Assembly: GCA_963760675.1 (NCBI GenBank)
Contig: CAVXEG010000017.1
Span: 200,515 to 264,514 of the forward strand
Reading direction: 5' to 3'
Length of the DNA: 64,000 bases
From: an uncultured Verrucomicrobiae bacterium
GTDB lineage: Bacteria; Verrucomicrobiota; Verrucomicrobiia; Limisphaerales; BOG-1460
Each line of letters begins with the position of its first letter. Position 1 is the stretch's first letter. The translations under genes were made by a program, and so were the position numbers. This document shows, piece after piece, positions 23,281 to 37,746 of the stretch. The notes under the pieces are model-generated. The model did no database searches. It was not told where the DNA came from and worked only from the letters and a program-made list of their open reading frames with translations.

Positions 23281-23286
23281 TTTCAT

Positions 23287-23364: not shown

Positions 23365-23369
23365 TTTCC

Positions 23370-23459: not shown

Positions 23460-23571
23460 ACCTTCGCTCGAAGCTTCAGCAAGAGCGAGGTTGCCGCGCC
23501 ATGGCGAAGCGAAGGCGGGCGCAGCTCGTCAAAATGCAAAAACTTCGAGCTTCGTCTCGGCGGCCATTTCT

Positions 23572-23647
23572 GGATCCGTAGCTCAATCAGCAGAGCGCCC
23601 CGTTGTCTGCGGGAGGGTTAAGGGTGCAATTCCCTTCGGGTCCGCCA
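23572..23647 (+). tRNA. tRNA-Asp(GTC)-like, D-loop AATCAGCA, T-loop TGCAATT
   Basis: Clean cloverleaf: ggatccg ta gctc..gagc, anticodon loop ttGTCtg, aaggg-tgcaatt-ccctt, cgggtcc g CCA. Confidence 0.6.
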
Positions 23648-23648
23648 T

Positions 23649-23723
23649 CAGCGCGTAGTGTAGAAGCAACATGCTCGGCTTGGGACCGAGCGATCGCAGG
23701 TGCAAATCCTGCCGCGCTGACCA
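23649..23723 (+). tRNA. tRNA-Pro(TGG)-like, T-loop TGCAAAT
   Basis: cagcgcg ta gtgt..acat g ctcgg cTTGGga ccgag .. gcagg tgcaaat cctgc cgcgctg a CCA. Confidence 0.6.
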
Positions 23724-23798
23724 ATTCAATTGGTTCTTTCTCCGGTGCAGCAGGCCCGCCAGTTCTGCGGTGCCTCGCATCGTTGCAGACGGGAGTTG

Positions 23799-26295
23799 CT
23801 ACTGCAATTTCCATTCGAGAATACCCCCGGAGAAGCGAGGCCTGAGTTGGACTTCGAGCCGCAGAGCCGTCGTTTCAATCGCATCAAACTCGACACGATT
23901 GAAACAATTCAAGAGCACACCGAATTCGCCACGCGGACTGACAGGTCTCCATTCGTCGCCGTCTCTGTAAAGCAGCCGCCACGAGTCGGGCACACGGCAA
24001 CTGCCGATGCCAGTATCGTCAAACCAATAAACGCTGACGGCTGCGACGCGTTTCGGAGAGTCGAAATCATATTGTGCCCATTCGGCAGTGCCGCGATGAT
24101 CCCACCAGGTGAGGCGAGGAATGTCTTGGTCGTTGGAACTGGCGGGGTCGAGCCCGTCGCACATGGCATTCACCGTATCATTCTCAAAACAATGCGAAGC
24201 GGTGGGCTTGTACGCGGCTGGCCTCGGCTGAGGCGTGACGACCCACTCGTGCGCTTCGGCAGTGGTGCTGACTGTGGGGAAGCACGAAATGCGGAGACGC
24301 GCCGCGCCCATCGGAATGAGCGTGATGTGCTCGACCGGCTCGTCGGATTTCGCCGGACTTGGCTGAAGTTTGCCGACCGCGTGCTGAGGCGGTCCAGCCT
24401 GCCATTGCGGGATCTTGCGCGCTTTGCGCCTTGATGCGATCGGTGCGGTGTCCGGCGTGAACGGTTGCGGCGGCAGGGGGCCGCTCCGGCGGCTGACGCT
24501 AAAGGATTTCGCCGGGTCACGCGCGTCGAGCACAAGACCGTAGTTCCAGGGCGAGTCAGGAAAAACTTCCCACTCAGGCCAGTTGGCGATTCGGTCGCCG
24601 TATTTCTGCCAGCGTTCCTTGATCGCCAGCGAGAAGCTCAGCGGGCCATAGTCCACGGACACGGCGTCTTTATTCTTTGCCCAGACGCGGACGGAGAACT
24701 TCATCGGCAATTGCAGTTCAATAGTATCATCGTTTTTCCAATCGCGGTTGACCACGATGAATGAGAGCGGCTTTGGTTTTCACTTCGCTGCTCTGGCCGT
24801 TGATCTTGACGATGCGGCATCTCGCACCAGCGCGGCACGCGCAGGTAGAGCGGGAAGGTCGACCGCTTTGGGCATGGCGAGCTTGAACGCGATCGTGTCG
24901 CTGAACGGATAATCGGTTTCTTCGGTGATCTTCACCGGCGTGCCGTCGCCGACCTTCGCGCTGACTTCGCTGGCGGCGTAGAGCGAGGCGCACAGGCCGT
25001 TGTCGGCCGTGGCCAGCCAGAGTTCCTCGGCGTAGTACGGCCAGCCGTGCGAGACGTTGTGCTGGCAGCAGCGATAGACCTCGAACGGGCTGTAGGAGAA
25101 CATCGTGCCGCCGTTCTGCGACTGCCGGGCGCTTTGTTGTCTCGGTCGAGTTGGACCTGGTTGGCGCAGGTCAGGTAGTGCAGGCCCTTCTGGTCCGGCG
25201 TCATGCGCGGCGGGGAAAGTGTTGAACGCGATCTCCTCGCAGCGGTCGGCCCAGAGCGGGTTGCCGGAGATCTTCGTCAGCATCTCGAAGCTGTGCATGA
25301 ACTCGACGATGCCGCAGGTCTCGAATGCCGCCGCGCGGGTCGGCGTAAGCCGGGCCGGCAATTCTCGTCGCCGGCGAAGCCGCCGCCGGGGAACTGGCCG
25401 TAGAGGTCCATGACCTGTCTGGTAATTGCTGCTCCGCGGAATCGAGGTCTCCGGCTTCGTGCGACTGCAGCCAATAGACCGCGCCGGTCGCGGAAGCCCT
25501 GGGCGATGTTCACGTTGTGCCAGTTGATGCACGCCCGTGGTCCCAGCGCTGCCATGTTCTCGTGGATCTTCTGCGCCAGCTCGAGCAGCCATGCTTCGCC
25601 GGTGCGGTTGTAGAGCCAGTAGACGCTTTCGATGTTGTCGCCGGCGCGAATCTTCGGCCAGTAGCCCTCGCCGAATGCGCTCGGCCGGGAGCTGCGTTCT
25701 CCCACTTGAAGTATCGCGTCATCAGGTCGAGCACGCGCGGGTCGCCGCTGAATTCGTAATAGGACTGCAGCACGTTCAGCATGACCATGTGCGGCCAGAG
25801 GTCGGGCTTGCCGTTGCAAGCGAAGTCAGCAGGTCGCGCGGGCCGAACCAGCCGTCCGCGCGCTGGGTGGCGAGCATCGGCTTCGATCCATTCTTCGCTT
25901 CGGCGATGATCGCCTCGTCCTTGCAGCACGTAGCCGAGGTCGCCGTAGCCTTTGAGCCAGTAAGGCAGTTCCTCCCAGCCGCGTTCGCCCTTGCCTTGCT
26001 TGTTGGCCCAGGCGCTGCCCTCGAAATTGAGCCAGGGCGAAATCTCCTTCAGCCGGCCGGTCATGCCGTCGCGCTCCAGCTCGAGCTGATGCCGCAGCCA
26101 GCCGCGCGGCGTGATGCTGCCGATGGGCAGTTTCACGAACGGACTGGGTTCGAGCGGCGCGCGGTTGCTGACGTAGAAAGCGTTTGACGCGTTCACAGGC
26201 GGTCCGTCCACAACGCTCAGTTGCATTTGCGCGGTCGTGTATTGCGCGTTGCAGGCCAAAACCAAAATTCCGTAAAGCAGGGGAAGCCTGTTCAT
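23799..26295 (-). CDS. Glycoside hydrolase family 127 (DUF1680, beta-L-arabinofuranosidase-like), multiple frame changes
   Basis: Signal peptide MNRLPLLYGILVLACNA at 26295. Fragments in ORFs 25510..26304, 25277..25819, 24780..25592, 23799..24755 (YRCCQHNVSHGWPYY, VSVYWFDDTGIGSCRVP). Confidence 0.6.
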
Positions 26296-26329
26296 GGCCT
26301 TCAAATTCTTCTATTTCGCAGGCATGTAC

Positions 26330-28605
26330 GTTGACGATGCCGACGTCAATGTATTGCCCGCCAGTCGTTTGGTGGCAGTGAACGGCGAGGACGTTATTCG
26401 TCGGCTGAAGCGCGGCGCTGGCTTCTGGGCTCATCGGCACCTCTTCGTATTCCGTGCTGTAACCGCCTACTTGAGCGGCGAGCGCACCGTTCACGTAGAT
26501 TTCCGCGTCTTCGTCATGGTGCAAACGCAACTGGAGTTGTCCATCGGCGGGCCGTGCGGCGTTGCAGATGCGGCGCAGCCAAATGTCGGACGTGTTCCAG
26601 ATCGTCCCGACATGCGCGCCGGGCGTGCCGCGGCTGCCGAAGCCAGCCGGACTATCGTGCCAGCCGCTGTCATCGAAGCCGGGCTTGAACCAGTCGTCAC
26701 CTGGTTTGATCGTTGTGTAGCGCCAGATGAAGGTTTCGTTCTCGGAGGTGGGCACGACGGATCTAATCACGGGTGCCGGAGGTGGCGCGGTGTAGAGACG
26801 CTTTGCCGCCGTGATGGCGAGCGGGTCCATTTTCACAAGCGCGCGGTCGTAAGTCATGAGGCCATTGACCTCGACTTCGACGTCCGTGGTTGGGTGTAAA
26901 CGGCGGCGGCCAGTCCGCGCGTGCCGGTCAACGGATGGAGCTTGCCGAGCAAATCGACGTAAGCGTCGGTGAGATCGGCGTTGTTGGTGAAGCTGCGATA
27001 ACCCCAGTTCTTCTCGTCCTGCCAGGTGTGCCCGCGAACGGGCAGGCCGAGCCCGCCGAATTCGCCCAGCACACCAGCGCGATTCCTTCCGGCGCGGGGG
27101 CGCCGGGACCGGGATAATTGTGGATGTCCATCACGTCGCCGGAACCGCGATCGGTCCAGCCGCTGGCGTCATCCACCAGCCGCGTGGGATCGAGTTGCTT
27201 GATGAGCTCGGCTAGCGCGGCGTTTCGTACTGGCCCCAGCCTTCGTTGAACGGCACCCACATGACGATGCATGGGTGATTGCAGCGTCCATTGATGAGCG
27301 CCTTGAGTTCCTGCTCATACTCCGCGGACGCGTCGTCGAGCGGCGGCGGTCAGTGCGGTTTCGCCGAAATTACCGCTGGGCATGTCCTGCCAGACGAGCA
27401 GGCCGAGCTTGTCGCACCAGTAATACCAGCGATCCGGCTCAACCTTCACGTGCTTGCGCGCCATGTTGAAGCCGAGCTTCTTCGTCATCTCGATGTCGTA
27501 GCGCAGGGCTTCGTCCGTGGGCGCCGTGTAAAGGCCGTCCGGCCAGAAGCCCTGATCGAGCGGGCCGAATTGGAAGAGGGCTTGTTATTCAGACACAGGC
27601 GGTGAAGCCCTCCTCGTCTTTGCCCAGGGAGATTTTGCGCATGCCGAAGTAGCTCGACTTCGTCGCGCAGCCTCCTTTGTCGTCAAAGACTTGACCAAGA
27701 GGTCATAGAGAAATGGCGAGTCCGGCGACCAGAGCTTTGCTGTGCCAACTCGAGTGTGACCTCGCCAGGAAATTTCGTGCCAGCGGCGGAAGCACGGTCG
27801 TATCGTACGCAAAATGACCTAGAACTCTTCTTGGATTTACCTTCGAGGATCGACACTTTTGCCTCAAACAGATTGTTGTCTTTGCCGGTTACGAGCGTGA
27901 AAGCCACCTTCACGGTGAATTCTCCAAGTCTGGTGTAATTCTGATATTCTCGACGTGCGCGTCGTCACCGGCTCCAACCACACCGTCTGCCAAATCCCGC
28001 TGGTGGGCGTGTACCAAATGCCGTCGGGCTTCCGCACCGCTTGCCGCGCGGTTGAGGGCCGGCGTCGCTCGGATCGAACACCGCCACGACGATTTCCTGT
28101 TCGCCCGAGGGCTTGAGCGCGTCGGTGATGTCGAAGCTGAAGCCATCGTAGCCGCCCTGATGCGAGCCGAGCTCCTTGCCGTTCACCCAGACCGTCGTTT
28201 CCCAATCCACGGCGCCGAAGTTCAGCAACACGCCTGGTTGCGCCAGCCACGCGCAATCGTGAACGTGCGCCGATACCAGAGCCGGTTCGTTTCGTACACC
28301 CGCTTCATCACGCCGGACAACGCGGACTCGATCGGGAACGGCACCAGGATTTGTCCATCCCAAGTCGCCGGTTGCGGGGCGTCTTTGCCGGTGATGGCGT
28401 ACTCCCACAGCCCGTTCAGATTCTGCCAATCCTCGCGGACCATTTGCGGCCGCGGGTATTCGGGATGGGCGTTTTTAGGTGAAACGTCCTTGGCCCAGCG
28501 CGTCATCAGCGGTCCTTTGGCGGGCTGCCAGTCTGCCGCAATAGACACCAAGGTGATGCTTGCTAATGCAATGGCAGCCAGGCACAGCCTTGAGCATTTG
28601 ACCAT
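26330..28605 (-). CDS. Glycoside hydrolase family 2 (beta-galactosidase/glucuronidase-like) with extra C-terminal sugar-binding-like domain, multiple frame changes
   Basis: Signal peptide [91 protein letters not shown] and DIHNYPGP, scattered over ORFs 28222..28701, 27965..28429, 26928..27272 and 25826..26857. Confidence 0.55.
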
Positions 28606-28733
28606 AGAGTCTTCATTGTCTATGCGTCCGTATCCGGCCTGCAAGCACTGATTCCATGTGAACCGTCTCAACTTACTCTGCTTCCTTGGTGCCACGGCCA
28701 AAGCGAAAACACAGGTCTATGATCATATCAAAT

Positions 28734-28810
28734 TGCTGCCGTGGTCGAATACATCAGGCATCCGCCTTCTAAGCGGAACGATGCAGGTGAAAATCCTGCC
28801 GGCAGGCGCC
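28734..28810 (+). tRNA. tRNA-like unit (T-arm gcagg-tgaaaat-cctgc, ends cgCCA), cloverleaf not fully resolved
   Basis: Abuts tRNA-Asn-like unit. Acceptor pairing imperfect. Confidence 0.3.
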
Positions 28811-28812
28811 AT

Positions 28813-28887
28813 TGCCAGGTAGTGTCAAAGTAGCACGGCGGCCTGTTAAGCCGTTCGGTGTTGGTGCGAGTCCAACCCTGGCAGCCA
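28813..28887 (+). tRNA. tRNA-Asn(GTT)-like, D-loop CAAAGTA, T-loop TGCGAGT
   Basis: tgccagg ta gtgt..gcac g gcggc ctGTTaa gccgt tcggt gttgg tgcgagt ccaac cctggca g CCA. Confidence 0.6.
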
Positions 28888-28891
28888 ATTT

Positions 28892-28967
28892 CAGGGTGTA
28901 ATGTCAGCAGCAGACGGCCTTGTTCGGAACGAGGAGGTCGCAGGTGCAACTCCTGCCACCCTGACCA
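28892..28967 (+). tRNA. tRNA-Pro(CGG)-like, T-loop TGCAACT
   Basis: Acceptor cagggtg/caccctg. Anticodon arm ccttg-ttCGGaa-cgagg. CCA 28965-28967. Confidence 0.55.
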
Positions 28968-28971
28968 TTTC

Positions 28972-29058
28972 GGATGGTTGGCAGAGCAGTAATGCCCCGG
29001 TCCCGAAAACCGAGTGAGCCTCCGGGCTGCGTGGGTGCAATCCCTACACCATCCGCCA
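28972..29058 (+). tRNA. tRNA-Ser(CGA)-like, class II with long variable arm (gagcc..gggctg), T-loop TGCAATC
   Basis: 87 nt. Acceptor ggatggt/accatcc. Loop ccCGAaa. Discriminator G, CCA. Confidence 0.55.
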
Positions 29059-29223
29059 CTTTTAAACCCTTAACGAAAGGAAATCCCATGAAGCCCATTC
29101 TCCGTTATCAAAGCCAATTGCTCTTTCGCCGGAGCTACAAACCAAATCGGTGATGCGAATCCGACCGTGACGTCGAACCTCGTGTTCCGCCCGGCCGATT
29201 CGGCGCGAAGCCGCAATTCAAAC

Positions 29224-29297
29224 TGTCTCGTAGCTCAAAAGCAGAGCATCCGGCTGATAACCGGAAGACCGCGGAGCGTTACCGCGCGGGACAACCA
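29224..29297 (+). tRNA. tRNA-Ile(GAT)-like, D-loop AAAAGCA, T-loop AGCGTTA
   Basis: tgtctcg ta gctc aaaagca gagc a tccgg ctGATaa ccgga agac cgcgg agcgtta ccgcg cgggaca a CCA. Confidence 0.6.
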
Positions 29298-29299
29298 AT

Positions 29300-29374
29300 C
29301 CCCGAGTAGCTGAGACAGATTAGCGCCTCCCTGAAGCCGAGGAGACGTTGGCGCGATACCAACCTCGGGGACCA
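29300..29374 (+). tRNA. tRNA-Phe(GAA)-like, T-loop CGCGATA
   Basis: Acceptor ccccgag/ctcgggg. Loop ctGAAgc. T-arm gttgg-cgcgata-ccaac. Confidence 0.5.
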
Positions 29375-29412: not shown

Positions 29413-30564
29413 ATGAACACCTTGACTGAAACTCAGGTGCGCCTTTTCGCCTCGGCCCAAAGCTGGATCGAAGGCGAAGCGGTGCGCCAACTCTATGCCA
29501 CCGCGAAACTCGACGGCGTCCGCCGCGCGGTCGGCTTCCCGGATTTGCATCCGGGCAAAGGCTCGCCCGTCGGTGCGGCGTTCGTGACCGAAGGCGTGAT
29601 CTACCCGCACCTCATCGGCGGCGACATCGGTTGCGGCATGGCGTTGTTCAAGACGGACCTCGTCCGTCGCGACGCCAAGCTCGATCGCTGGGCCAAGCTG
29701 CAGTTCAACCTCGAACACCCGTGGGATCAGTTCGTCAGCGACTTCCTCGCTGAACACGATCTCGAATCCACGGAGTTCGATTCGGCGCTCGGCACGATCG
29801 GCGGTGGCAATCACTTCGCCGAATTGCAGACGGTCGAGAAGGTGCTCGACGCCGACGAGTTCAAGAAACTTGGACCTCGGCAAGCAGCAACTCGTCGTGC
29901 TCGTTCACAGCGGCTCGCGTGGATTGGGTGAATCCATCCTGCGGGCTCATGTGGATCAGCACTTCGGCAACGGAGTCGAAGCGGATTCGTTCGCGGCGGA
30001 GGAATATCTCCGCGGTCACGACTTCGCAGTCCGCTGGGCCAAGGCAAATCGCGAACTCATCGCGCGTCGCTTCGTTGCGACGCTCGGTGCGGAAGCCGAA
30101 TGCCTCTGGGACGGCTGCCACAACAGCATCACCCGCCATGGAAGCTGGTTGGATTCACCGCAAAGGTGCAGTTGCTGCCGACGGTGACTTCGTCGTGATC
30201 CCGGGTTCACGCGGCTCGTTGAGCTATCTCGTGAAGCCGATCGGCGATGGCGAAAGTCACGCCTGGTCGCTGGCCCACGGTGCGGGTCGCAAGTGGGCGC
30301 GCAGCGATGCTCGTCAGCGCATGCGCGAACGCTTCGGCATGCACCAATTGGTGCAGACGCCGCTCGGCGGCCGCGTGATCTGCGAAGAGCGCGACTTGCT
30401 CTACGAAGAAGCACCCGCCGCCTACAAAAACATTGAGGCAGTGATCGCAGGACCTCGTTGCTGCCGGACTCGTGTCCGTCATCGCGACGTTGCGACCACT
30501 CCTCACTTACAAGACGCGCAAAGCTTCGCCGCTAACGCGTCCATCATCGCCACGGAGGAACTGA
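29413..30564 (+). CDS. rtcB: RtcB-family RNA 3'-phosphate/5'-OH ligase (short form, ~380 aa), spread over 3-4 frames
   Basis: PDLHPGKGSPVGA, GGDIGCGM, GTIGGGNHF, LVHSGSRGLG, HRKGA, IPGSRG, HGAGR. C-terminus QDLVAAGLVSVIATLRPLLTYKTR in a shifted frame. RBS aaaaggaaac before the ATG. Confidence 0.7.
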
Positions 30565-30633
30565 GTCCACAGAGTTAAGGTCTGCCCGCGAGCAGCGACT
30601 CTGGGTTCTCATCCTCTGCGGCAACCATTTTCT

Positions 30634-30711
30634 GTCCGTGAATGCAAAGCAGCTCGAGCAGCCGGTCTTTCAAGCCGGGCCTAGTCGGTGCGAGTCCGAT
30701 CACGGATGCCA
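30634..30711 (+). tRNA. tRNA-Glu(TTC)-like, T-loop TGCGAGT
   Basis: Acceptor gtccgtg/cacggat. Anticodon arm ccggt-ctTTCaa-gccgg. CCA 30709-30711. Confidence 0.5.
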
Positions 30712-30715
30712 TTTT

Positions 30716-30793
30716 GCTCTCAAGGTGTAATTAGTTCTGCACGCCGCTCTGCGAAGGCGGAGGTTCGTGGTGCAAATCCACGTGAGAGCGCCA
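30716..30793 (+). tRNA. tRNA-like unit, anticodon unresolved. T-loop TGCAAAT.
   Basis: Acceptor gctctca/tgagagc. D-arm gtgt..gcac. CCA 30791-30793 then GTTTC. Confidence 0.4.
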
Positions 30794-30801
30794 GTTTCAA
30801 A

Positions 30802-30877
30802 GCCCCCGTGCCTCAGCAGCTACAGGGCGAGTTTCGTAAACTCGTATTCGTCGGTGCGAGTCCGACCAGGGGCTCCA
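30802..30877 (+). tRNA. tRNA-Thr(CGT)-like, T-loop TGCGAGT
   Basis: Anticodon arm cgagt-ttCGTaa-actcg. T-arm gtcgg-tgcgagt-ccgac. CCA 30875-30877. Confidence 0.5.
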
Positions 30878-31246
30878 GTTTCAAATGGTGATCATGATGT
30901 AACAGCAGCATCACGCCCCGTGAAGGCGTTTGTGCCGGTGCGAATCCGGTTGGTCCTGCCCAATTTCAGAATTTGAATCAGCCAGCAGCCACTCCGGCAG
31001 TTCGCCGGAACGGTTCTGCGCATGAGCTGGTTCAATCGCGGTTCGAATCCGCACGTTGGCTGATAACCAACTCCATTGGCTGGAGACGGGAGAAATCCCA
31101 CCACGGTTCGGGGCAGCGAGACCGGCGCGCAAGCGCAGCCCGAAGGCGGCTTTGTGAGAATTGCGCTGAGCGATTCTCCCGCCGCCGGACGGTGGTCTGC
31201 TGCTCTCGGGCTTTCAATTTTCAACCAGCAAGAAAGGAGAACACTA

Positions 31247-32030
31247 TGAACTACGAAATCATCATCATCGCAATCGGCATCGCCATCTATCGGCATCGTC
31301 ATCGGTCTGCCGCAGTCTGCTTCAGAATTCCGCCGCGCGTTCCTCGTGCCGGAAGGTTACGCCGGCCTGCTCTACCACAAGGGCAAGTTCGTCGGAAGTC
31401 CTCCGCGCTGGCCGACACATCCGCTGGGGTCGCCACTTCACGCTCGACGTGCAGGACCTCCGCAAGACGTCGCTGCTCGTGGCCGGTCAGGAAGTCCTCA
31501 CGGCTGACAACGTCGGCCTCAAGATCAGCCTGCTCGTCACCTACCAGGTGACCGACCCGGTCAAGGCTGCGCACGAAACGCAGAACTGGCAGGGCGACCT
31601 CTACAACGCCGCCCAGCTCGCGCTGCGCGCGGTCGTGGGCGGGGTCGCCGTCGAAGCGCTGCTCGGTCAGCGACTCGAAATCGGCGCGCAACTGCTGGCC
31701 CGCGTGCAGCCGGAAGCCGCCAAGATCGGCATCAACGTCCTCGCGGTCGAAGTGAAGGACGTGATGTTCCCGGCCGACCTCAAGCGCGCCTTCGCCGACG
31801 TGCTGAAGGCGAAGCAGGAAGGCCAGGCCGCGCTCGAACGCGCCCGCGGCGAAAGCGCCTCGCTGCGCAATCTCGCCAACGCGGCTCGTGTGCTGGAAGG
31901 CAATCCGGCGTTGATGAACCTGCGTCTGATGCAGTCGCTCTCGGCTGCGCAGAACGCGGGCAACACGCTCGTGCTCGGCATGCCCGGCGGCTTCGTGCCG
32001 TTGAAGAACGGCAAGCCAAGTTCGCCTGAA
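31247..32030 (+). CDS. SPFH/Band-7 (stomatin/prohibitin/HflC-like) membrane protein, N-terminal region in 3 frames
   Basis: TM N-terminus MNYEIIIIAIGIAIY. EFRRAFLVPEGYAGLLYHKGKFV. SPFH core in ORF 31449.. (LVAGQEVLTADNVGLKISLLVTYQV ... LAVEVKDVMFPADLKRAFADVLKAKQEGQAALERARGE). RBS aaaggaga. Confidence 0.6.
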
Positions 32031-32062
32031 CACAGGCCGAGGACGGAGCAAGTTAAACAACG

Positions 32063-32090
32063 CGGGCGGAGGCGAAAGCTTCCGCCCGCA
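32063..32090 (+). terminator. Hairpin gcgggcggaggcgaaagcttccgcccgc. Identical second copy at 32833-32863.
   Basis: Perfect 10-bp GC stem. The apparent in-frame read-through of the Band7 ORF across it has low GC3 and is treated as non-coding. Confidence 0.45.
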
Positions 32091-32147
32091 CTTTACAACG
32101 AATATTCAAACAACAAGAAACATGAAACCAATTACTTGAGAACAGTT

Positions 32148-32772
32148 ATGAAAAAAAATCAAGGCAAGGCCTCCGCCGATTTCCGTGTGGAGGTCCGGTC
32201 TTGGGGAAACTACGTCGAGCGAATCGCCGAGCTTGAAGCGAGCGCTCGCGAAGAAACCCACGAACGCTTCAAATCGAAATCGTCGGTGACGGGTGAAATC
32301 CCGGCGGACAGCGGCGTTGCGATTCCGCTCGGCATTGATGGAACGCTCACCGAGGACGCGGATTGTCACCAACGCGCGTTCCAGCCTGCAAGGCGGCTCG
32401 GTGCTGCTCTGGTTGCTGGGCGACACCGGACATTCGCGACGACGCGCGGCTCTATTTCCGTCGCACCACGTTGTCCGAGGACGACGAGGTGCCGGAGAAT
32501 GGAGCTGGGAGGACGACGAACCGAAGTATCGGGATTCGTATTCCGCGATTGATCCGGACGAAGGCGATTACGCGCGAGTGCTGCAACTCATCAATGAGTT
32601 CCTGCCGGTCAAGGAAATGGCCGGGCGACTCATCGGTGTGCCGGTGCTGCGGCAATTCGGTCTCATCGAAAACGAGAAGGTGGACAGTTTCCTGGCCACT
32701 GTGCTTTCGAAAAGCTCAGAGCCGAGCGAACGCCGTGAACGCAACGAATCAACAGCGTGTTGCGACGCGTGA
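32148..32772 (+). CDS. Hypothetical protein (~205 aa), frame change near 32400
   Basis: MKKNQGKASADFRVEVRSWGNYVERIAELEASAREE... continues in ORF 32293..32772 (EDDEPKYRDSYSAIDPDEGDYARVLQLINEFLPVKEMAGRLIGVPVLRQFGLIEN). Flanked by identical hairpins. Confidence 0.4.
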
Positions 32773-32832
32773 AAGCCCGCGCACGACAGATCGCAGATAA
32801 TCAGTTCAAGGACGCCAAGAGGCAGACAACAG

Positions 32833-32863
32833 TGCGGGCGGAGGCGAAAGCTTCCGCCCGCAC
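32833..32863 (+). terminator. Second copy of hairpin gtgcgggcggaggcgaaagcttccgcccgcac, followed by TTCAATTTC
   Basis: Identical to 32063-32090. Confidence 0.45.
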
Positions 32864-32874
32864 TTCAATTTCAT

Positions 32875-32949
32875 ATCCCGTTGGCCGAGCAGCTCAGGCG
32901 GCGGCCTGCAAAGCCGCAGAGGCTGGTGCGATTCCAGCACGGGATTCCA
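32875..32949 (+). tRNA. tRNA-Cys(GCA)-like, T-loop TGCGATT
   Basis: atcccgt tg .. gcggc ctGCAaa gccgc agag gctgg tgcgatt ccagc acgggat t CCA. Confidence 0.6.
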
Positions 32950-32955
32950 TTTCTT

Positions 32956-33030
32956 CGGGCATAGGTGTTGAGAGACACACGCCGGTCTTCCAAACCGGAG
33001 TACAGGGCGCGCTACCCTCATGCCCGTCCA
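32956..33030 (+). tRNA. tRNA-Gly(TCC)-like, T-loop CGCGCTA
   Basis: Acceptor cgggcat/atgcccg. D-stem gtgt/acac. Anticodon arm ccggt-ctTCCaa-accgg. Confidence 0.55.
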
Positions 33031-33032
33031 TT

Positions 33033-33117
33033 TCCCAAGTGAATCGGGTGCGTCGGCAGAGACCCCGCACGGTCGAAGTAATGGCCGGACACCCGATTCG
33101 GTGCGCTTGGGATTCCA
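33033..33117 (+). tRNA. tRNA-like unit, unresolved (85 nt)
   Basis: Ends ttgggat t CCA tttt. Internal pairing ambiguous. Confidence 0.3.
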
Positions 33118-33126
33118 TTTTCCGCG

Positions 33127-33199
33127 ACGCGAAATCCCGGTGTCGATCAGAACTTCACAGATCTGGCCGCGGTGGTTCAACTCCGCCTTCGTGTCGCGC
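33127..33199 (+). tRNA. tRNA-like unit with a canonical T-arm (ggtgg-TTCAACT-ccgcc) and no encoded CCA. The exception in the array.
   Basis: Acceptor acgcgaa/ttcgtgt. Anticodon arm unresolved. Confidence 0.3.
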
Positions 33200-33201
33200 T
33201 T

Positions 33202-33276
33202 GGGTTGCAAACTTTGACAGTGAAGTCCCGGCTCTTAACCGGCGAGAACTCGGTGCGAATCCGAGGCAACCCACCA
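33202..33276 (+). tRNA. tRNA-Lys(CTT)-like, T-loop TGCGAAT
   Basis: Acceptor gggttgc/gcaaccc. D-stem actt/aagt. Loop ctCTTaa. T-arm ctcgg-tgcgaat-ccgag. Confidence 0.55.
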
Positions 33277-33281
33277 TTTCC

Positions 33282-33357
33282 GCATCCGTGGTGAAATTAT
33301 TATCATCCTCCGCTTCGAACGGAGAGTTTGCAGGTGGGAGTCCTGCCGGATGCACCA
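33282..33357 (+). tRNA. tRNA-Arg(TCG)-like, T-loop TGGGAGT. Same anticodon as the host tRNA at the island boundary.
   Basis: gcatccg tg gtga..tcat c ctccg ctTCGaa cggag agttt gcagg tgggagt cctgc cggatgc a CCA. Confidence 0.55.
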
Positions 33358-33363
33358 ATTTAC

Positions 33364-33445
33364 GGGCATGTGGTTAACCCAATAGCAGAGGGTCCAGACT
33401 CAGAATCTGGCAGCCTTGGGGGTGCAAGTCCCTTCACGCCCACCA
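33364..33445 (+). tRNA. tRNA-like, anticodon loop ctCAGaa (Leu CAG-like), 82 nt
   Basis: Anticodon arm ccaga-ctcagaa-tctgg. T-loop TGCAAGT. Acceptor with one mismatch. Confidence 0.4.
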
Positions 33446-33449
33446 TTTC

Positions 33450-33532
33450 GCCCACGTGGCTCCAACGGAACAGCAGACCCGGCGCACTTAAAACGCGCAC
33501 AGTTCGGGTGCAAGTCCGACCGTGGGCACCGA
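33450..33532 (+). tRNA. tRNA-like, anticodon unresolved (possible TAA). Ends in CCG rather than CCA.
   Basis: Acceptor gcccacg/cgtgggc. T-loop TGCAAGT. Confidence 0.3.
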
Positions 33533-33615
33533 CCGGCGTGTAGCCCAATCGGAACAGCAGACCGGTTCCGCTCAAACCGGAAAGGTTGCAGGTGCAAGTC
33601 CTGCCACGCGGACCA
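33533..33615 (+). tRNA. tRNA-like, anticodon loop ctCAAac (Leu CAA-like)
   Basis: Anticodon arm ttccg-ctcaaac-cggaa. T-arm gcagg-tgcaagt-cctgc. CCA 33613-33615. Confidence 0.4.
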
Positions 33616-33619
33616 ATTT

Positions 33620-33707
33620 GGAATGTCCACCGGTCAAGCGCGCCGGGCCTCGGTGCTAACGAGTGCGTGCCTTCGGGCAAGTGGTGCAAGTCCACGGCAT
33701 TCCGCCA
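33620..33707 (+). tRNA. tRNA-Ser(GCT)-like, class II (88 nt, long variable arm), T-loop TGCAAGT
   Basis: Acceptor ggaatgt/gcattcc. Loop gtGCTaa. Variable arm tgcc..ggca. Discriminator G, CCA. Confidence 0.5.
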
Positions 33708-33712
33708 TTCAT

Positions 33713-33804
33713 GCGCGCGTAGCTCAAAGAGAGCCGGCGGCTTTATACCCCGCATCGCACTAGATCAGTGCCGGGATCCGGAGCGTTACCGGACGCGCGT
33801 ACCA
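33713..33804 (+). tRNA. tRNA-like, 92 nt. Anticodon loop region gctttatacc reads as TAT (Ile AUA) or TTA (ochre suppressor) depending on register. T-loop AGCGTTA.
   Basis: Acceptor gcgcgcg/cgcgcgt. ta gctc..gagc D-arm. Anticodon stem imperfect. Confidence 0.35.
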
Positions 33805-33808
33805 TTTT

Positions 33809-33884
33809 GTCCCCATAGCTCAAAACACAGAGCGGGCGCGTCCTAAGCGTCAGGTTGTCGGTGAGAGTCCGGCTGGGGACACCA
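33809..33884 (+). tRNA. tRNA-Arg(CCT)-like, T-loop TGAGAGT
   Basis: gtcccca ta gctc aaaacaca gagc g ggcgc gtCCTaa gcgtc aggtt gtcgg tgagagt ccggc tggggac a CCA. Confidence 0.6.
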
Positions 33885-33890
33885 ATTTCT

Positions 33891-33964
33891 GCGGGTGTGG
33901 TTCAACAGCAGAATGCGGCCGTGCCAAGGCCGAGACGACGGTGCGACTCCGTTCACCCGCTCCA
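33891..33964 (+). tRNA. tRNA-Gly(GCC)-like, T-loop TGCGACT
   Basis: Anticodon arm cggcc-gtGCCaa-ggccg. T-arm gacgg-tgcgact-ccgtt. Acceptor gcgggtg/cacccgc. Confidence 0.6.
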
Positions 33965-33969
33965 ATTTC

Positions 33970-34044
33970 GGGGGCGTAGCTCATCAGCAGAGCGCTCGTT
34001 TGACATGCGAGAGGCAAAGAGGGCAGCACTCTTCGCTCCCACCA
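33970..34044 (+). tRNA. tRNA-Val(GAC)-like, D-loop ATCAGCA, T-loop GGCAGCA
   Basis: gggggcg ta gctc atcagca gagc g ctcgt ttGACat gcgag aggca aagag ggcagca ctctt cgctccc a CCA. Confidence 0.6.
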
Positions 34045-34050
34045 TTTTCC

Positions 34051-34127
34051 GAGGGCATAGCTCAGCCAGTCAGAGCGGATGCTTCACATGCATCAGGTCG
34101 AAGGCGCGAATCCTTCTGCCCTCACCA
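34051..34127 (+). tRNA. tRNA-Val(CAC)-like, T-loop CGCGAAT
   Basis: gagggca ta gctc agccagtca gagc g gatgc ttCACat gcatc aggtc gaagg cgcgaat ccttc tgccctc a CCA. Confidence 0.65.
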
Positions 34128-34132
34128 TTTCT

Positions 34133-34210
34133 GTCCCTGTGGTGTAGTCCAGTCAACATGCCTGCCTCTCATGCAGGAGATCACCGGAGCGAAGCCGGTC
34201 AGGGACGCCA
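34133..34210 (+). tRNA. tRNA-Glu(CTC)-like, T-loop AGCGAAG
   Basis: Acceptor gtccctg/cagggac. Anticodon arm cctgc-ctCTCat-gcagg. T-arm accgg-agcgaag-ccggt. Confidence 0.6.
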
Positions 34211-34219
34211 ATTTCAATT

Positions 34220-34294
34220 GCCCTCAAAGCATTGTCAGCGATGCATTCGCTCGGTAAGCGAATCAGCTCGGTGCAATTCCGAGTGAGGGCTCCA
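34220..34294 (+). tRNA. tRNA-Thr(GGT)-like (anticodon loop tcGGTaa with C33), T-loop TGCAATT
   Basis: gccctca aa gcat tgtcagcg atgc a ttcgc tcggtaa gcgaa .. ctcgg tgcaatt ccgag tgagggc t CCA. Confidence 0.5.
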
Positions 34295-34297
34295 TTT

Positions 34298-34369
34298 CGC
34301 AGTCGAGCCAGCGCTCAAGTGGGTTTCATAAGCCCGCTGTGTCCGGGGCAGCACCGGAGACTGCGACCA
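34298..34369 (+). tRNA. tRNA-like with apparent 9-nt anticodon loop (tttCATaag), T-loop GGCAGCA
   Basis: Acceptor cgcagtc/gactgcg. T-arm tccgg-ggcagca-ccgga. Confidence 0.35.
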
Positions 34370-34374
34370 TTTCC

Positions 34375-34446
34375 GCCTCCATGCAGCAGCCTGCGGATTT
34401 CTTTTGTAAAGAATTCCTGCCGGAGCATCACCGGCTGGAGGCTCCA
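34375..34446 (+). tRNA. tRNA-like (72 nt), anticodon unresolved. T-loop AGCATCA.
   Basis: Acceptor gcctcca/tggaggc. T-arm gccgg-agcatca-ccggc. Confidence 0.35.
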
Positions 34447-34454
34447 TTCCATTT

Positions 34455-34529
34455 GCTCGCGTAGCCCAATGCAGAGGCACGACGTCGAGAACGTCGCCAG
34501 TGCAGGTGCAAGTCCTGCCGCGAGCACCA
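34455..34529 (+). tRNA. tRNA-like, anticodon loop tcGAGaa (GAG, Leu-type anticodon but short variable arm), T-loop TGCAAGT
   Basis: Acceptor gctcgcg/cgcgagc. Anticodon stem cgacg/cgtcg. Confidence 0.4.
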
Positions 34530-34536
34530 ATTTCAA

Positions 34537-34617
34537 GGAGTCGAAGCACAAAGCAGACCGGCACCGGACTTTTAATCCGTGAACATGGTGAGGTTGCAAC
34601 TACCTCCGGCTCCACCA
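34537..34617 (+). tRNA. tRNA-like (81 nt), anticodon region imperfect (possible TTT). T-loop TGCAACT.
   Basis: Acceptor ggagtcg/cggctcc. T-arm gaggt-tgcaact-acctc. Confidence 0.35.
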
Positions 34618-34623
34618 ATTCAT

Positions 34624-34698
34624 TGCCGGGTCGTCTAATCAGTAGGACACCGCCCTTTGAAGGCGACGGTGATGGTGCGAATCCATCCCCGGCAGCCA
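34624..34698 (+). tRNA. tRNA-Gln(TTG)-like, D-loop AATCAGTA, T-loop TGCGAAT
   Basis: tgccggg tc gtct aatcagta ggac a ccgcc ctTTGaa ggcga cggt gatgg tgcgaat ccatc cccggca g CCA. Confidence 0.55.
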
Positions 34699-34716
34699 AT
34701 TCAGTCGAGCTTCGAC

Positions 34717-34790
34717 CGCTCGGTGGTGAAATAGCATCACGTCTGGCCTACACCCAGAAATCGAGGGGGCAGAACCTTCCCGGGCGACCA
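34717..34790 (+). tRNA. tRNA-Val(TAC)-like (loop ccTACac, C33), T-loop GGCAGAA
   Basis: Acceptor cgctcgg/ccgggcg. D-arm gtga-aatagca-tcac. Anticodon stem tctgg/ccaga. Confidence 0.45.
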
Positions 34791-34797
34791 ATTCCAT

Positions 34798-34873
34798 TGC
34801 CTCGTGTGCATAATCAGCAGTGCGCCGGTCTCTGACACCGGAGAGTCTGGAGCAAAACCAGGCGAGGCAGCCA
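34798..34873 (+). tRNA. tRNA-Gln(CTG)-like, T-loop AGCAAAA
   Basis: Acceptor tgcctcg/cgaggca. Anticodon arm ccggt-ctCTGac-accgg. T-arm tctgg-agcaaaa-ccagg. Confidence 0.5.
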
Positions 34874-34944
34874 ATTTCGCCATTTCAACAAAGAACAAAC
34901 ACCTCAACGCGCGGAGCAGTCAGTGGCGGTGTGCAAACACTTTT

Positions 34945-35529
34945 ATGAGCGACATACTGAACAAGACGATTGTGCTGGTGCTCAACCGCAACTGGCAGGC
35001 GATCAACATTCGCACGCCGCAGGACGCGTTCTGCCAGATGGCCACGAACGTGGCCACCGCGCTGGAGATCGAAGGCGAGAACCACATCCGTCCCGTCACG
35101 TGGGACGAGTGGATCACGCTGCCGATTCGCGAGGGCGACAACGCCGTGCGCACCGCGCGCGGCGCGATCCGCGTGCCGACGGTGATTGTGGCGGTGAACT
35201 TCGCCAAGGTGCCGAAGAAGCGCCCGAAGCTCTGCGCCAAGACGATTCGCGAGCGCGACGGCAACCGCTGCCAATACACGGGCAAGTTGCTGAAGCCGGA
35301 CGAAGGCAGCCTCGACCACGTCCTGCCCCGCTCGCGCGGCGGCGCGGACACGTGGGAAAACCTCGTGTGGTCGAGCAAGGACGTGAACACCCGCAAGGGC
35401 AACCGCCTGCCGCACGAAGCCGGCCTGAAGCTGCTCAGCGTCCCGCGCGCGCCGAAGGAACTGCCGGTGACGGCGCTCATCCGCAACGCCCACGGCGTCG
35501 CCGAGTGGAAACTGTTCCTGAATGAATGA
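34945..35529 (+). CDS. HNH endonuclease
   Basis: CQYTGKLLKPDEGSLDHVLPRSRGGADTWENLVWSSKDVNTRKGNR (HNH core with Zn-binding Cys/His). Starts at MSDILNKTIVLVLNRNW. Directly 3' of the tRNA array. Confidence 0.75.
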   Translation: MSDILNKTIVLVLNRNWQAINIRTPQDAFCQMATNVATALEIEGENHIRPVTWDEWITLPIREGDNAVRTARGAIRVPTVIVAVNFAKVPKKRPKLCAKTIRERDGNRCQYTGKLLKPDEGSLDHVLPRSRGGADTWENLVWSSKDVNTRKGNRLPHEAGLKLLSVPRAPKELPVTALIRNAHGVAEWKLFLNE

Positions 35530-35609
35530 AACAACGGGAGAGCGGGCGTCAAAGCTCGCTCTCCTAGCTTAAACTCAACAAACGAATCAAAATCTGCAAG
35601 CATCATCCC

Positions 35610-36345
35610 ATGTTGTGCCGGCTATGTCATAAGAAAGCAGTGCTAAGGAATTCACACATCATTCCAGAATTCTTCTACAAGCCGGCGTATGACCCTTTGC
35701 ATCGTTTTCAAGTGATCACTTCCAATCCAGAAACTCCTGAGAGTTATGCTCAGAAGGGCCTGCGAGAAAAGCTTCTCTGCCACGAATGCGAACAAATTTT
35801 GCGCGGTGGGAACACTACGCGAATGAAACTCTTGTTCATAGCAACGGACTTGTGTCCGTTAACGTTCCGGAAGGAGTAGTGCTAAAGGGTTTGGATTACA
35901 CGAAATTCAAACTTTTTTTGCTGTCAATCCTTTGGCGCATGGGCGTGAGTTCGCTAGACGCATTTGTGGAAGTCAAACGAGGCAGTCATCATGAAGAAGC
36001 ACTTCGCGTTGCTCTCTTGAACGGCGATCCTTAAGCGGAAGACCGCTACGGTTGCATGATGATTGCACTCACTTTGAAAGGTAAGATTTACACTGAATTG
36101 GATTATCCCTCCGACATTGGTCAATTTCTGCAACCAGCATTGCTACCGGGTTCTCATTAATGAATCCTCTACTGCTTTTTAGTTTCGAAACAGCCAACTC
36201 CAAAACAGTTAAAACCGCTGATGCAACTCGTCAGAATCAAATGCTCGTGCTCACGGGGGATGTCGTGGATGTGCCTTTTCTATATAAAGCGGTGACTGAA
36301 TTCTCGAAGGCCATTAACAAACGCAAATCCAAACGCTTAAAATGA
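35610..36345 (+). CDS. Hypothetical Cys-rich protein (CRLCHKK...CHECEQ), lower GC than surroundings, 2 frame changes. Stop overlaps the rtcB start (taaaATGa).
   Basis: ORFs 35610..35879, 35786..36034 and 36160..36345 form one reading-through protein of ~240 aa. AT-richer codon usage suggests separate origin. Confidence 0.4.
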
Positions 36346-37746
36346 ACACCAAAGATTTTCTCCGTCTCGGCGTGCCGCTCGGTGAAGCCACGCGGCGCGC
36401 GACGGATTTTGTTGCGCAATTCATCTTGCGCGGCGGCGACACGGCGAAGTTGGAAGAGGAAGTCAAAGCCATCGTCGCCAATCCCGGCGTTGTTCGCCGA
36501 AGATCCGTTGCGCAAGGAATTCGCAAAAGCCGTTGCCAATTCGCCTCCGCCACCGCGCGCCGAACCGGTGAAGTATCGGCAATGGGGCGAAGGGCTCGAA
36601 CACGACGCGGTGATGCAGATGGAGAAGGCGTGCCTGTTGCCGGTGTCGGTGGCGGGCGCGCTGATGCCGGACGCGCACGTGGGCTACGGCCTGCCCATCG
36701 GCGGCGTGCTGGCCACGGAGAACGCGGTCATTCCTTACGCCGTCGGCGTGGACATCGCGTGCCGCATGAAGATGACGGTGCTGGATATTCCGGTGCGCGA
36801 CCTGGAGCAAAAGCAGGATCGGCTCACGCGCGCCATCGAAGCGGAGACGCGCTTCGGCATCGGCGCCAACTTCAAGCAACGCCGCGAGCATGAGGTGATG
36901 GACGCGGATTGGTCGGTCAGCGCCGTGACGCAGCAGAACAAGGACCGGGCGTGGTCGCAACTCGGCACGAGCGGCAGCGGAAATCATTTCGTCGAGTTCG
37001 GTTTGTTCACGGCGCAAGCAAGAGATCAACGGATCTTGCCAGCCGGGAACTTACGTGGCGTTGCTGTCGCACAGCGGCAGTCGCGGCACGGGCGCGGCGG
37101 TGTGCGATCATTACAGCAAGCTGGCGTTTGGCCAGCGTCGCGGATCTTGCCGAACGAATTGCTCCGGCTCGCGTGGCTGTCGCTCGATTCGCAGGAAGGC
37201 CAGGAATACTGGAACGCGATGGAGTTGATGGGCCAATACGCGGCGGCGAACCACGCGTGCATTCACCAGCACATCGCGGAGAATCTCGGCGCGCAGGTGC
37301 TGCTCGATTTGGAGAACCATCACAACTTCGCGTGGAAGGAGAAGCACGTCATTGACGGCGTGGAACGCGAAGTGGTCGTTCATCGCAAAGGCGCGACGCC
37401 GGCGGGCAAGGGCGTGCTCGGAATCATTCCCGGCTCGATGGCATCGCCGGGATTTGTCGTGAGCGGCAAAGGAAATCCGGAATCGCTCGAACTCGGCGTC
37501 GCACGGCGCGGGCCGCGCGATGAGCCGCAAAGCCGCGAACGAGAAATTCAATTGGAAGGACGTGAACCGTTTTCTCAAGCGAGCGAGGCGTGACGCTCAT
37601 CAGCGCCGGCCTCGACGAAGTGCCGATGGCTTACAAAAACATCCGCGAAGTGATGGCCGCGCAGAGCGACCTGGTCGACGGTGCTCGGCGAGTTCGATCC
37701 CAAGCTCGTGAAGATGGCGCCGAGCGGCGAGCGGCCGGAGGATTGA
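36342..37746 (+). CDS. rtcB: RtcB-family RNA ligase (long form, ~465 aa, N-terminal extension), frame changes near 36480 and 37500
   Basis: MPDAHVGYGLPIGGV, GVDIACRMKM, GTSGSGNHF, HRKGATPA, IIPGSMASPGFVV. C-terminal VTLISAGLDEVPMAYKNIREVMAAQSDLV in a shifted frame. Confidence 0.7.

Follow-up and report, generated by a model that had tools for sequence, protein, structure and literature searches.

A stretch of 64,000 nucleotides from an uncultured Verrucomicrobiae bacterium (contig CAVXEG010000017.1, positions 200,515 to 264,514; hereafter the window, numbered from its first letter) carries an array of tRNA genes together with two genes for RtcB RNA ligases, here called RtcB1 and RtcB2. We conclude that this region is probably one copy of a modular island that is common in Verrucomicrobiota of the Limisphaerales/Pedosphaerales type, belongs to the L-array type of tRNA array and backs up a damaged translation apparatus. 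The island opens with a non-coding leader and continues with blocks of tRNA genes, RtcB1 inside the array, an SPFH gene followed by a conserved gene without family assignment, an HNH endonuclease gene, a cargo slot and RtcB2; RtcA comes after RtcB2 in some island copies, and none adjoins it in the window. Relatives are homologous to the window from 19830 up to the very stop codon of RtcB2 at 37746, with interruptions by two inserts private to the window, and the island spans ~18 kb, or ~10.5 kb if these inserts are subtracted. The array described in the initial annotation of this DNA is real but had been started too late, as the leader from 19837 and the tRNA genes at 23205-23723 also belong to it. 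The same architecture was recovered from three independent queries, namely RtcB1, RtcB2 and the leader motif.

L-arrays are long series of supernumerary tRNA genes that lack periodicity and have spread horizontally, and Verrucomicrobia are among the phyla listed as having them (PMC8421152). They were defined by more than ~20 tRNA genes in the same orientation, with short intergenic distances and without periodicity (Santamaria-Gomez 2021). The window holds ~27 Rfam tRNA matches, all on the + strand between 23205 and 34870 and in a non-repetitive order, with a linked HNH gene (Pfam HNH_4) at 34945-35529. The island is a variant of the L-array type already known from cyanobacteria, mobile-looking and widespread in Verrucomicrobia.

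Co-inheritance, subfamilies and frame breaks of the two ligases

A scan of a genome collection with the frame-corrected RtcB1 returned 64 loci, mostly in metagenome-assembled genomes (MAGs) of Limisphaerales/Verrucomicrobiia and 70-95% identical, of which 57 are close and 7 distant homologs. A tRNA gene on the same strand was found within 3 kb at 49 of the 57 close loci, 37 had at least three tRNAs, and 27 of the 57 had at least ten in the fetched stretch, as against none of the 7 distant homologs in an array. The position of RtcB1 is also fixed, in that it follows tRNA-Phe and precedes the Arg(gcg)-Thr-His genes in dozens of loci, and the island is syntenic in many chromosomal contigs, up to complete chromosomes. 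The idea that ligase and array are inherited together, for which a tabulation of genomic contexts had been proposed, is strongly confirmed by these counts.

The two ligases differ in length, place and subfamily. RtcB1 (29413-30564, + strand) lies between tRNA blocks A and B and is a short form of ~369-382 aa, and RtcB2 (36342-37746, + strand), the last gene of the island, lies past block C and is a long form of 465 aa with ~45 extra N-terminal residues relative to the P. horikoshii enzyme. Both genes had been annotated in this way, as a short and a long RtcB at these places, and profile searches bear this out: the collinear fragments of both genes match Pfam PF01139, the frame-corrected proteins score 245 bits (RtcB1) and 289 bits (RtcB2) against it, and both have the full catalytic set of P. 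horikoshii RtcB (D95, C98, N202/H203, H234, H329 and H404). By sequence, RtcB1 is a member of the PrfH-coupled subfamily, with full-length scores above the equivalog cut-offs of NF007153 (509.8 bits, cut-off 407) and TIGR03073 (450.3 bits, cut-off 271.8), and RtcB2 is far below both cut-offs. The numbering in Escherichia coli runs the other way, the window RtcB1 being akin to the PrfH-coupled E. coli RtcB2 and the window RtcB2 to the RtcA-coupled E. coli RtcB1.

The characterised PrfH-coupled RtcB of E. coli acts on 30S/16S rRNA with a cut in the decoding centre and leaves cleaved tRNAs unrepaired, whereas the RtcA-coupled enzyme does the opposite, so that the substrates of the two subfamilies are mutually exclusive (PMC9304027). 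The earlier suggestion that both ligases mend tRNA is not supported by this comparison, because RtcB1 belongs to the subfamily whose E. coli member repairs 30S/16S. A division of labour in which RtcB1 would act on rRNA and RtcB2 on tRNA is our best reading by analogy, because of the subfamily split, the coupling of RtcB2 to RtcA and the exclusive substrates in E. coli. RtcB1 resembles the ligase of the E. coli RtcB2-PrfH module (PMC9304027) in its full-length subfamily scores, its size of ~370-380 aa and its catalytic residues; unlike that ligase, it is found among tRNA genes without prfH and not in a two-gene operon. A six-frame scan for GGQ in the window and the 64 loci found no GGQ/PrfH gene within 10 kb at the window or at any array locus, and PrfH was seen only beside the homolog in L051, which is 47% identical and array-free.

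RtcB2 is likewise tied to the island. Homology of the window to L020 and L043 stops exactly at its stop codon, and tblastn places it after the HNH gene in five genome loci (L020, L035, L036, L043 and L062). Metagenome contigs L081 and L082 show the order array, HNH, cargo and RtcB2, contig L093 shows leader, array, HNH and RtcB2, and in L079 and L080 the series HNH, cargo, RtcB2 and RtcA is followed by integrases. The RtcA of these two contigs is bona fide (NF003246, 453 bits against a cut-off of 352) and directly follows RtcB2, which is itself canonical, as in the rtcBA operon of E. coli (RtcB1 and RtcA); the window differs from that operon in the N-terminal extension of RtcB2 and in having no adjoining rtcA, as no rtcA-sized open reading frame (ORF) was found within ~1.5 kb downstream, where short ORFs were not scanned for families.

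Neither ligase, nor the Cys-rich ORF that lies directly upstream of RtcB2, is intact in the window, and the three genes as first annotated presuppose frame correction. RtcB1 has three single-base insertions (29874, 30139 and 30449) and two more in its tail, leaving four frame segments; RtcB2 has ~6 frame changes (36483, ~37020-37040, 37144, 37486, ~37585 and 37677); and the Cys-rich ORF has two, with an in-frame TAA near 36032. These breaks, a broken SPFH gene, the failure of ARAGORN to call about half of the Rfam tRNAs and the two private inserts that interrupt the island could be taken to describe a decaying relic in which the frameshifts and the stop are real, the inserts break up the array and the ligases are inactive. 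We consider this unlikely. In an alignment of the window with four relatives, all mapped breaks are insertions private to the window, mostly of 1 nt and mostly outside homopolymer runs, and the relatives are intact. Natural decay in bacteria is biased towards deletions, and there are none here. With its three insertions removed, RtcB1 is open and free of nonsense codons; comparison with five relatives gives 58-87 synonymous and 20-33 non-synonymous codon differences, mostly at third positions, and the gene is under purifying selection. The corrected RtcB2 aligns along its entire length (100%) with an intact protein, P0121 (465 aa), at 93% identity. The tRNA genes have no private indels relative to the relatives, and ARAGORN under-calls the non-canonical tRNAs of clean relatives too.

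The distribution of the breaks is harder to read. Frame-breaking insertions occur at ~1 per 250 bp in the island core and in the private glycoside-hydrolase insert (insert 2, below), and other multi-kb stretches have none. The intact sigma and putative anti-sigma genes of insert 1 (2.2 kb, 20.6-22.8 kb) speak for real decay, as the breaks are not uniform noise, but similar breaks in the glycoside-hydrolase gene, which is not part of the island core, point to a technical cause. We hold with some confidence that the frame breaks are consensus errors, probably of a long-read MAG, because they are insertions only, are private to the window, leave third-position changes dominant in RtcB1 and affect an RtcB2 that is 93% identical to intact proteins. 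Such insertions could come from diverged island copies or strains collapsed in long-read assembly. A GC3 frame plot was too noisy for mapping the frameshifts. In long-read MAGs, a gene with a broken frame should not be called a pseudogene until its frame has been corrected.

The array tRNAs and the leader RNA

The island has ~27-30 tRNA genes in all; Rfam finds ~27 tRNA-like genes and ARAGORN 15, all on the + strand. The first block (23205-23723) consists of an Ala-like gene (23205-23276), Asp (23572-23647) and Pro (23649-23723) and corresponds in synteny to Gly-Ala-Asp-Pro, with which the array opens in relatives. Block A (28735-29371) has 8 genes, with Arg(tct)-like, Asn, an unassigned gene, Ser(cga), one more, Ile(gat), Phe(gaa)-like and others; they score 37-54 bits against the Rfam tRNA model, only 3 of the 8 are called by ARAGORN, and none has a private indel relative to the relatives. 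Block B (30630-30958) begins with a tRNA-like element and continues with Arg(gcg) (30716-30790), Thr(cgt) (30802-30877) and His(gtg) (30888-30958), an Arg-Thr-His order that is kept after RtcB1 in relatives. Block C (32875-34870), with ~16 genes whose order is syntenic in relatives, includes Cys, Arg(tcg), two long or unassigned genes, a class II tRNA with anticodon UAU (33713-33804), Arg(cct), Gly, Val, Glu, Thr(ggt), Leu(gag), Gln and others. The order in relatives, as called by ARAGORN, is Gly-Ala-Asp-Pro-Arg(tct)-Asn-Ser-Ile-Phe before RtcB1 and, after it, Arg(gcg)-Thr(cgt)-His, then Cys, then Arg(tcg)-Leu-Leu-Leu-class II(UAU)-Arg(cct)-Gly-Val-Glu-Thr-Leu-Lys-Gln-Gln, and ARAGORN alone finds up to 22 array tRNAs in them.

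The array tRNAs are 97-98% identical between the window and its relatives, against 73-86% for the spacers, and they depart from the near-universal rule that the tRNA elbow is built from U55 and G18-G19. Among the 466 array tRNA genes of the window and loci L001-L064, position 55 of the T-loop is G in 458 of 465, the D-loop has GG in only 44 of 466, and CCA is encoded by 452 of 466. The housekeeping tRNAs of the same loci are canonical at the elbow, as are those of an array on a Mycolicibacterium plasmid, and phage arrays are mostly canonical at positions 54-56. Because of this contrast, the rewired elbow (G55 and no D-loop GG) appears, by sequence comparison, specific to this island family. 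A cyanobacterial counterpart did not enter the comparison, as the neighbourhood of the HNH gene on Acaryochloris pREB6 has no tRNA array within 9 kb. Canonical tRNAs also lie outside the arrays in several fetched loci, and within the window Arg(tcg) is present twice, at 33282 in the array and as a canonical gene at 50734-50810.

Bacterial class II tRNAs normally belong to Leu, Ser or Tyr. Block C of the island has conserved class II tRNAs of 88-92 nt with a long variable arm and with UAU (Ile codon AUA) and CGU (Thr) anticodons, for example at 33713-33804 of the window (UAU) and at 15760-15851 and 15251-15338 of L036. The window copy with UAU was missed by both ARAGORN and Rfam, and the only candidate for a CGU counterpart in the window is an unassigned 79-nt tRNA-like match at 33364-33442. 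The length of these members (88-92 nt) comes from the long variable arm of class II tRNAs and not from an intron, and we therefore rejected a role of RtcB as a splicing enzyme for intron-bearing array tRNAs.

The leader (19837-20510, + strand) is a conserved non-coding segment of ~650 nt at the 5' edge of the island and a candidate structured RNA with two terminator-like hairpins. It is 68-88% identical in 40 of the 64 loci, always on the same strand and upstream of the array. Homologs occur in L001-L057 and in metagenome contigs L083-L202, its core motif being present in at least 120 such contigs; a same-strand tRNA gene lay downstream in 56 of 75 of these (median distance 332 nt), against 2 of 32 upstream. 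Hairpin 1 (20134-20161, + strand; ACCCTGCTTACC...GTAAGCAGGGT then TTTTTTG) is among the three strongest terminator-like sites in a scan of 18.7 kb, and its stem is invariant in 34 sequences except for one compensatory change from A:U to C:G. Hairpin 2 (20473-20500, + strand) lies at the 3' end of the leader and has a near-copy at 22997-23026; with hairpin 1 it makes up the strongest terminator-like pair in the region. In leader alignment A2, from which both the structure and the covariation test were taken, pairing is kept in 97% of cells and both partners change in 16 pairs, compared with 9.5 ± 1.4 in shuffled alignments (none of 500 reaching 16) and 3-8 with slid partners. The covariation supports the predicted leader structure.

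Several other identities for the leader were considered and rejected. No consistent ORF runs through it, and the sole recurring one, of 63-64 aa, has every codon position conserved in its 3' half and is scrambled in its 5' half, which speaks against a protein gene. The window leader and five clean homologs match no Rfam family at E ≤ 1, including GOLLD and ROOL, so that neither these RNAs nor a T-box nor another known RNA accounts for it, although the leader may by analogy be a counterpart of GOLLD or ROOL. A three-segment terminator/anti-terminator switch was discarded since the terminator covaries and the alternative pairing does not, and a likeness of the second domain to the 3' end of 16S rRNA is taken as a coincidence, as the small-subunit rRNA model has no match there.

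Mobility, the cargo slot and other parts of the island

Flanking DNA differs between loci, and the modules of the island assort independently, as compact variants show: L093 has the leader at 254, 14 tRNAs, HNH at 6766 and RtcB2 at 7504, with neither RtcB1 nor cargo, and L097 has leader, HNH and an RtcB2-like gene with almost no tRNAs. Single MAGs may hold two or three diverged copies (L044, L053 and L057 in one; L024 and L045 in another), whose RtcB1 is 68-84% identical to that of the window, and some copies lie in bins of Bryobacterales, Limnocylindrales and 'Bifidobacterium', which suggests mobility or mis-binning. A canonical tRNA-Arg(acg) is found ~30 bp from the left border in L043 (5521-5597) and ~530 bp from the right border in L081 (11924-12000), and tyrosine-recombinase genes lie near the copies in L019 (17881-18939) and L079 (6686-7951 and 12142-13275). 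The border tRNA-Arg and the recombinases hint at integration at tRNA-Arg. In sorting these neighbourhoods, all-against-all clustering of ORFs was polluted by spurious ORFs across tRNA DNA and antisense to RtcB and was replaced by targeted tblastn and inspection by hand.

The HNH gene (34945-35529, + strand; Pfam HNH_4, HNH_5 and HNH) is intact and is the conserved 3' neighbour of the array, following the last tRNA block in ~22 loci with 61-94% identity by tblastn. Its relatives are found on plasmids of Acaryochloris, Nostoc, Tolypothrix, mycobacteria and Rhodococcus, in one case within a 27-tRNA array on a Mycolicibacterium plasmid, and directly 3' of tRNA arrays in large phage contigs (L072 and L078). 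These phage neighbourhoods raise the question of whether the island is an anti-defence module, derived from a phage or an integrative and conjugative element, whose tRNAs and ligases counter tRNA-cleaving immunity of the host for the benefit of the element. Mycobacterial tRNA array units have been discussed as a putative anti-defence system (PMC12803027), and the integrases near L019 and L079, the housekeeping tRNA-Arg genes at the borders of L043 and L081, the multiple diverged copies in some MAGs, the changing flanks and a defence-like cargo (Schlafen/AlbA_2, a restriction-modification pair and HipA) would fit such an origin. Against it, no close relative of RtcB1 and no leader motif was found among 2.9 million viral contigs, so that a viral origin of RtcB1 or the leader was rejected; no phage structural or conjugation genes lie inside the island; and the island is compact and syntenic across its many chromosomal contigs. 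We regard a module that serves the element in this way as quite improbable, while noting that it overlaps with the back-up of damaged translation and that the two are not mutually exclusive.

Between the HNH gene and RtcB2 lies a cargo slot. In the window it holds the Cys-rich ORF (35610-36345, + strand) within a low-GC cassette (35565-36341, 777 bp), whose GC content is 0.45 against 0.63-0.66 in the flanks (0.63 in RtcB2) and at both borders of which homology ends sharply. The ORF was correctly described at the outset as Cys-rich and low in GC; its four cysteines (C3, C6, C57 and C60) form a CxxC...CxxC motif. It belongs to a family of 352 members of ~240 aa, with the motif CxxC..SHIIPE..CxxCE, in which S15, H16, P19, E20 and C60 are among the invariant residues and C3, C6 and C57 are nearly so. 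The structure model is very confident (pLDDT 94.8) and resembles no fold in the PDB. PADLOC, Pfam and NCBIfam gave no match, and the profile check proposed earlier for this product found no RtcB, archease or other RtcB cofactor, nor any other family. A nuclease is possible on the HNH-like motif, although neither an HNH profile match nor a beta-beta-alpha-metal fold was found.

The Cys-rich ORF is, on comparison of sequences, a cargo cassette in a hypervariable slot and not a conserved partner of RtcB, because none of the 64 related genome loci, the five with RtcB2 among them, has it, its GC content is 45%, its borders coincide with the ends of homology and the content of the slot varies. In other loci (L020, L035, L036, L043, L062, L079, L081 and L082) the slot holds Schlafen/AlbA_2, RlaP with a restriction-modification pair, a 1341-aa RCC1/WD40 protein, unassigned proteins of 162-609 aa or nothing, as in L043; RlaP (PF10127), in L062, is another RNA-repair gene. 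Where RtcB2 is missing, the HNH gene is followed by other mobile or toxin-type genes, such as HipA-HTH and an integrase in L019, and the slot behaves like a defence-island hot spot.

The initial annotation had made the Cys-rich protein a translationally coupled specificity or activator subunit of RtcB2. The overlap on which this was based is real, the TGA of the ORF and the ATG of RtcB2 sharing ATGA at 36342-36345, but a designed coupling is not supported, as the gap between cargo gene and RtcB2 is 14 to ~470 nt in other loci. The conserved four-Cys motif, the confident fold model and homologs that follow an island-type HNH gene in L068 and L070 are outweighed by the absence of the ORF from the related loci, the unrelated genes or empty slot found in its place, the sharp drop in GC content, the lack of an archease or other family match and the occurrence of the family without RtcB (none follows it in L068 or L069, and P0012 homologs stand alone between unrelated genes), so that a partner role is very hard to credit.

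The remaining features of the region concern the inserts and the DNA after block B. Insert 1 (20511-22973, + strand), without counterpart in related loci, carries an intact ECF sigma factor gene (20664-21266; Pfam Sigma70_r2, r4 and ECF domains) and an intact ORF of 527 aa (21253-22836) that has no Pfam match and is a putative anti-sigma factor from its position and an N-terminal Cys motif seen by eye. It is flanked by hairpin 2 of the leader and its near-copy, and relatives align to both copies with overlapping coordinates, as if the insert had entered at the second hairpin. Insert 2 (23733-28719, - strand; ~5 kb), absent from relatives, has one or more glycoside-hydrolase family 2 genes in many frames, with one fragment matching Glyco_hydro_2_N and ORFs that overlap in different frames, and it separates the three leading tRNAs from all later ones.

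After block B, a conserved non-coding spacer (30960-31247, + strand), kept in 14 loci, contains a T-arm (GCGGTTCGAATCCGC) that is canonical, unlike those of the array tRNAs. Identification of the spacer as a YrlA or RtT RNA was rejected on sub-threshold scores (RtT, 19 bits in the window; YrlA, 33.9 bits in L004, at a site near the spacer position whose equivalence is not demonstrable). It is followed by the SPFH/Band-7 membrane protein gene (31248-32080, + strand), which is split over three frames and broken near its start in the window, is kept in ~15 loci and is intact in L020 (Band_7, 110 bits), and by a conserved gene (32178-32772, + strand) with tblastn matches in ~20 loci. Neither Pfam nor NCBIfam matched this second gene (5173-5823 in L020), and a ClpP/NfeD-like stretch, 'ARSSLQGGSVLVWLLG', is a candidate picked out by eye; it would fit the known association of SPFH and NfeD genes.

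Precedents and proposed role of the island

The closest precedent is found in cyanobacteria. Their L-arrays have a linked HNH gene and a co-regulated rtcB gene in the neighbourhood or embedded in the array, a supply-and-repair function was proposed for them in 2021, and a role of the endonuclease in moving the array was also put forward (PMC8421152). The array of Anabaena stays silent until translational stress induces it, and it promotes survival; repair of toxin-cut tRNAs by RtcB was a matter of speculation (PMC8421152). Like the trn operon of Anabaena PCC 7120 with its HNH gene all8564, the verrucomicrobial island combines a long, same-strand, non-periodic array with HNH and rtcB genes, and its apparently patchy distribution may reflect horizontal transfer. 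It differs in having the HNH gene downstream and not upstream, two RtcB subfamilies at fixed positions, an embedded SPFH gene, a ~650-nt leader in place of a short direct-repeat operator, and tRNAs with G55 and no D-loop GG, a feature that is not mentioned for the cyanobacterial arrays in PMC8421152.

Mycobacterial arrays co-occur with HNH genes and the giant GOLLD RNA (PMC9569102). They share with the island a structured non-coding RNA, array and HNH gene, and probably also redundant tRNAs and a location on mobile DNA (PMC9569102, PMC12803027, PMC5966550), and the HNH proteins are homologous at ~30-35% identity; however, the leader of the island is unmatched to GOLLD and ROOL, the one mycobacterial array examined has canonical elbows, and RtcB is not mentioned in PMC9569102 or PMC12803027. 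Phages, too, have tRNA clusters. In T4, with SegB, and in T5-like arrays, such clusters are accompanied by homing endonucleases, and the island resembles them in the HNH-type endonuclease that adjoins the array, as in L072 and L078. Unlike them, it is a chromosomal island without phage genes, its RtcB1 and leader do not occur in viral contigs and its elbows differ from those of the mostly canonical phage arrays examined.

By analogy with these systems, the island would be a back-up kit for a damaged translation apparatus. Should ribotoxins, toxin RNases or tRNA-targeting defences poison translation, the array would be a source of spare tRNAs; RtcB1, as E. coli RtcB2 does, would reseal 16S rRNA after cleavage in the decoding centre; cut tRNAs would be resealed by RtcB2, either alone or together with RtcA, in the manner of E. 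coli RtcB1; the leader hairpins would hold the unit silent until needed; and the HNH enzyme would promote spread or retention of the array, like homing endonucleases. A supply-and-repair module was already suggested in the initial annotation and is, by analogy, a reasonable reading, being plausible, co-inherited and published for cyanobacteria, except for the part that set both ligases to work on tRNA.

A number of points weigh against this proposal. Every functional step is drawn from homologs. Ribosome repair in E. coli depends on PrfH in vivo; no PrfH gene lies near RtcB1, whose substrate in the island may therefore be another one. Compact variants (L093) lack RtcB1, and RtcB2 is missing within 3-9 kb of the HNH gene in ~8 loci, so that neither ligase is obligatory. 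The proposed anti-terminator pairing finds no covariation when the leader alignment is judged by eye, and promoter-like and terminator-like sites are, in total, no more numerous than expected from shuffling. The frame breaks are uneven, insert 1 and the 8.2 kb at 55.7-63.9 kb being clean, the Cys-rich ORF has a nonsense codon, and some real decay may accompany the errors.

A more far-reaching version, which we hold doubtful as a whole, would join several of the unusual features. In it, the island would be a self-contained cassette for rescuing translation, and its ~30 array tRNAs with a rewired elbow would form a class not recognised before, orthogonal to, or decoys for, nucleases and modification enzymes that recognise the elbow or T-loop; a PrfH-independent ligase of the 16S type among these tRNAs would work beside a tRNA ligase at the end of the island; the leader, as a functional analogue of GOLLD or ROOL, would gate the entire unit; and the class II UAU and CGU tRNAs could also serve recoding or mistranslation under stress.

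To our knowledge, few natural substrates of bacterial RtcB have been established, although these ligases are abundant, and of the long tRNA arrays that recur in genomes a single one has been studied by experiment. A PrfH-less ligase of the rRNA type within an array, the leader RNA and the G55 tRNAs are of higher interest than the association of ligases and array first noticed here. Hundreds of conserved tRNA genes that break the U55/G18-G19 rule may outweigh that original finding, and so may the leader, a widespread structured RNA outside all Rfam families with which the array begins. The array-embedded RtcB1 is a test bed for whether a PrfH-type ligase can work without PrfH, and two RtcB subfamilies fixed in one array provide a natural test of whether array and ligases act as one stress-rescue unit in these Verrucomicrobiota.

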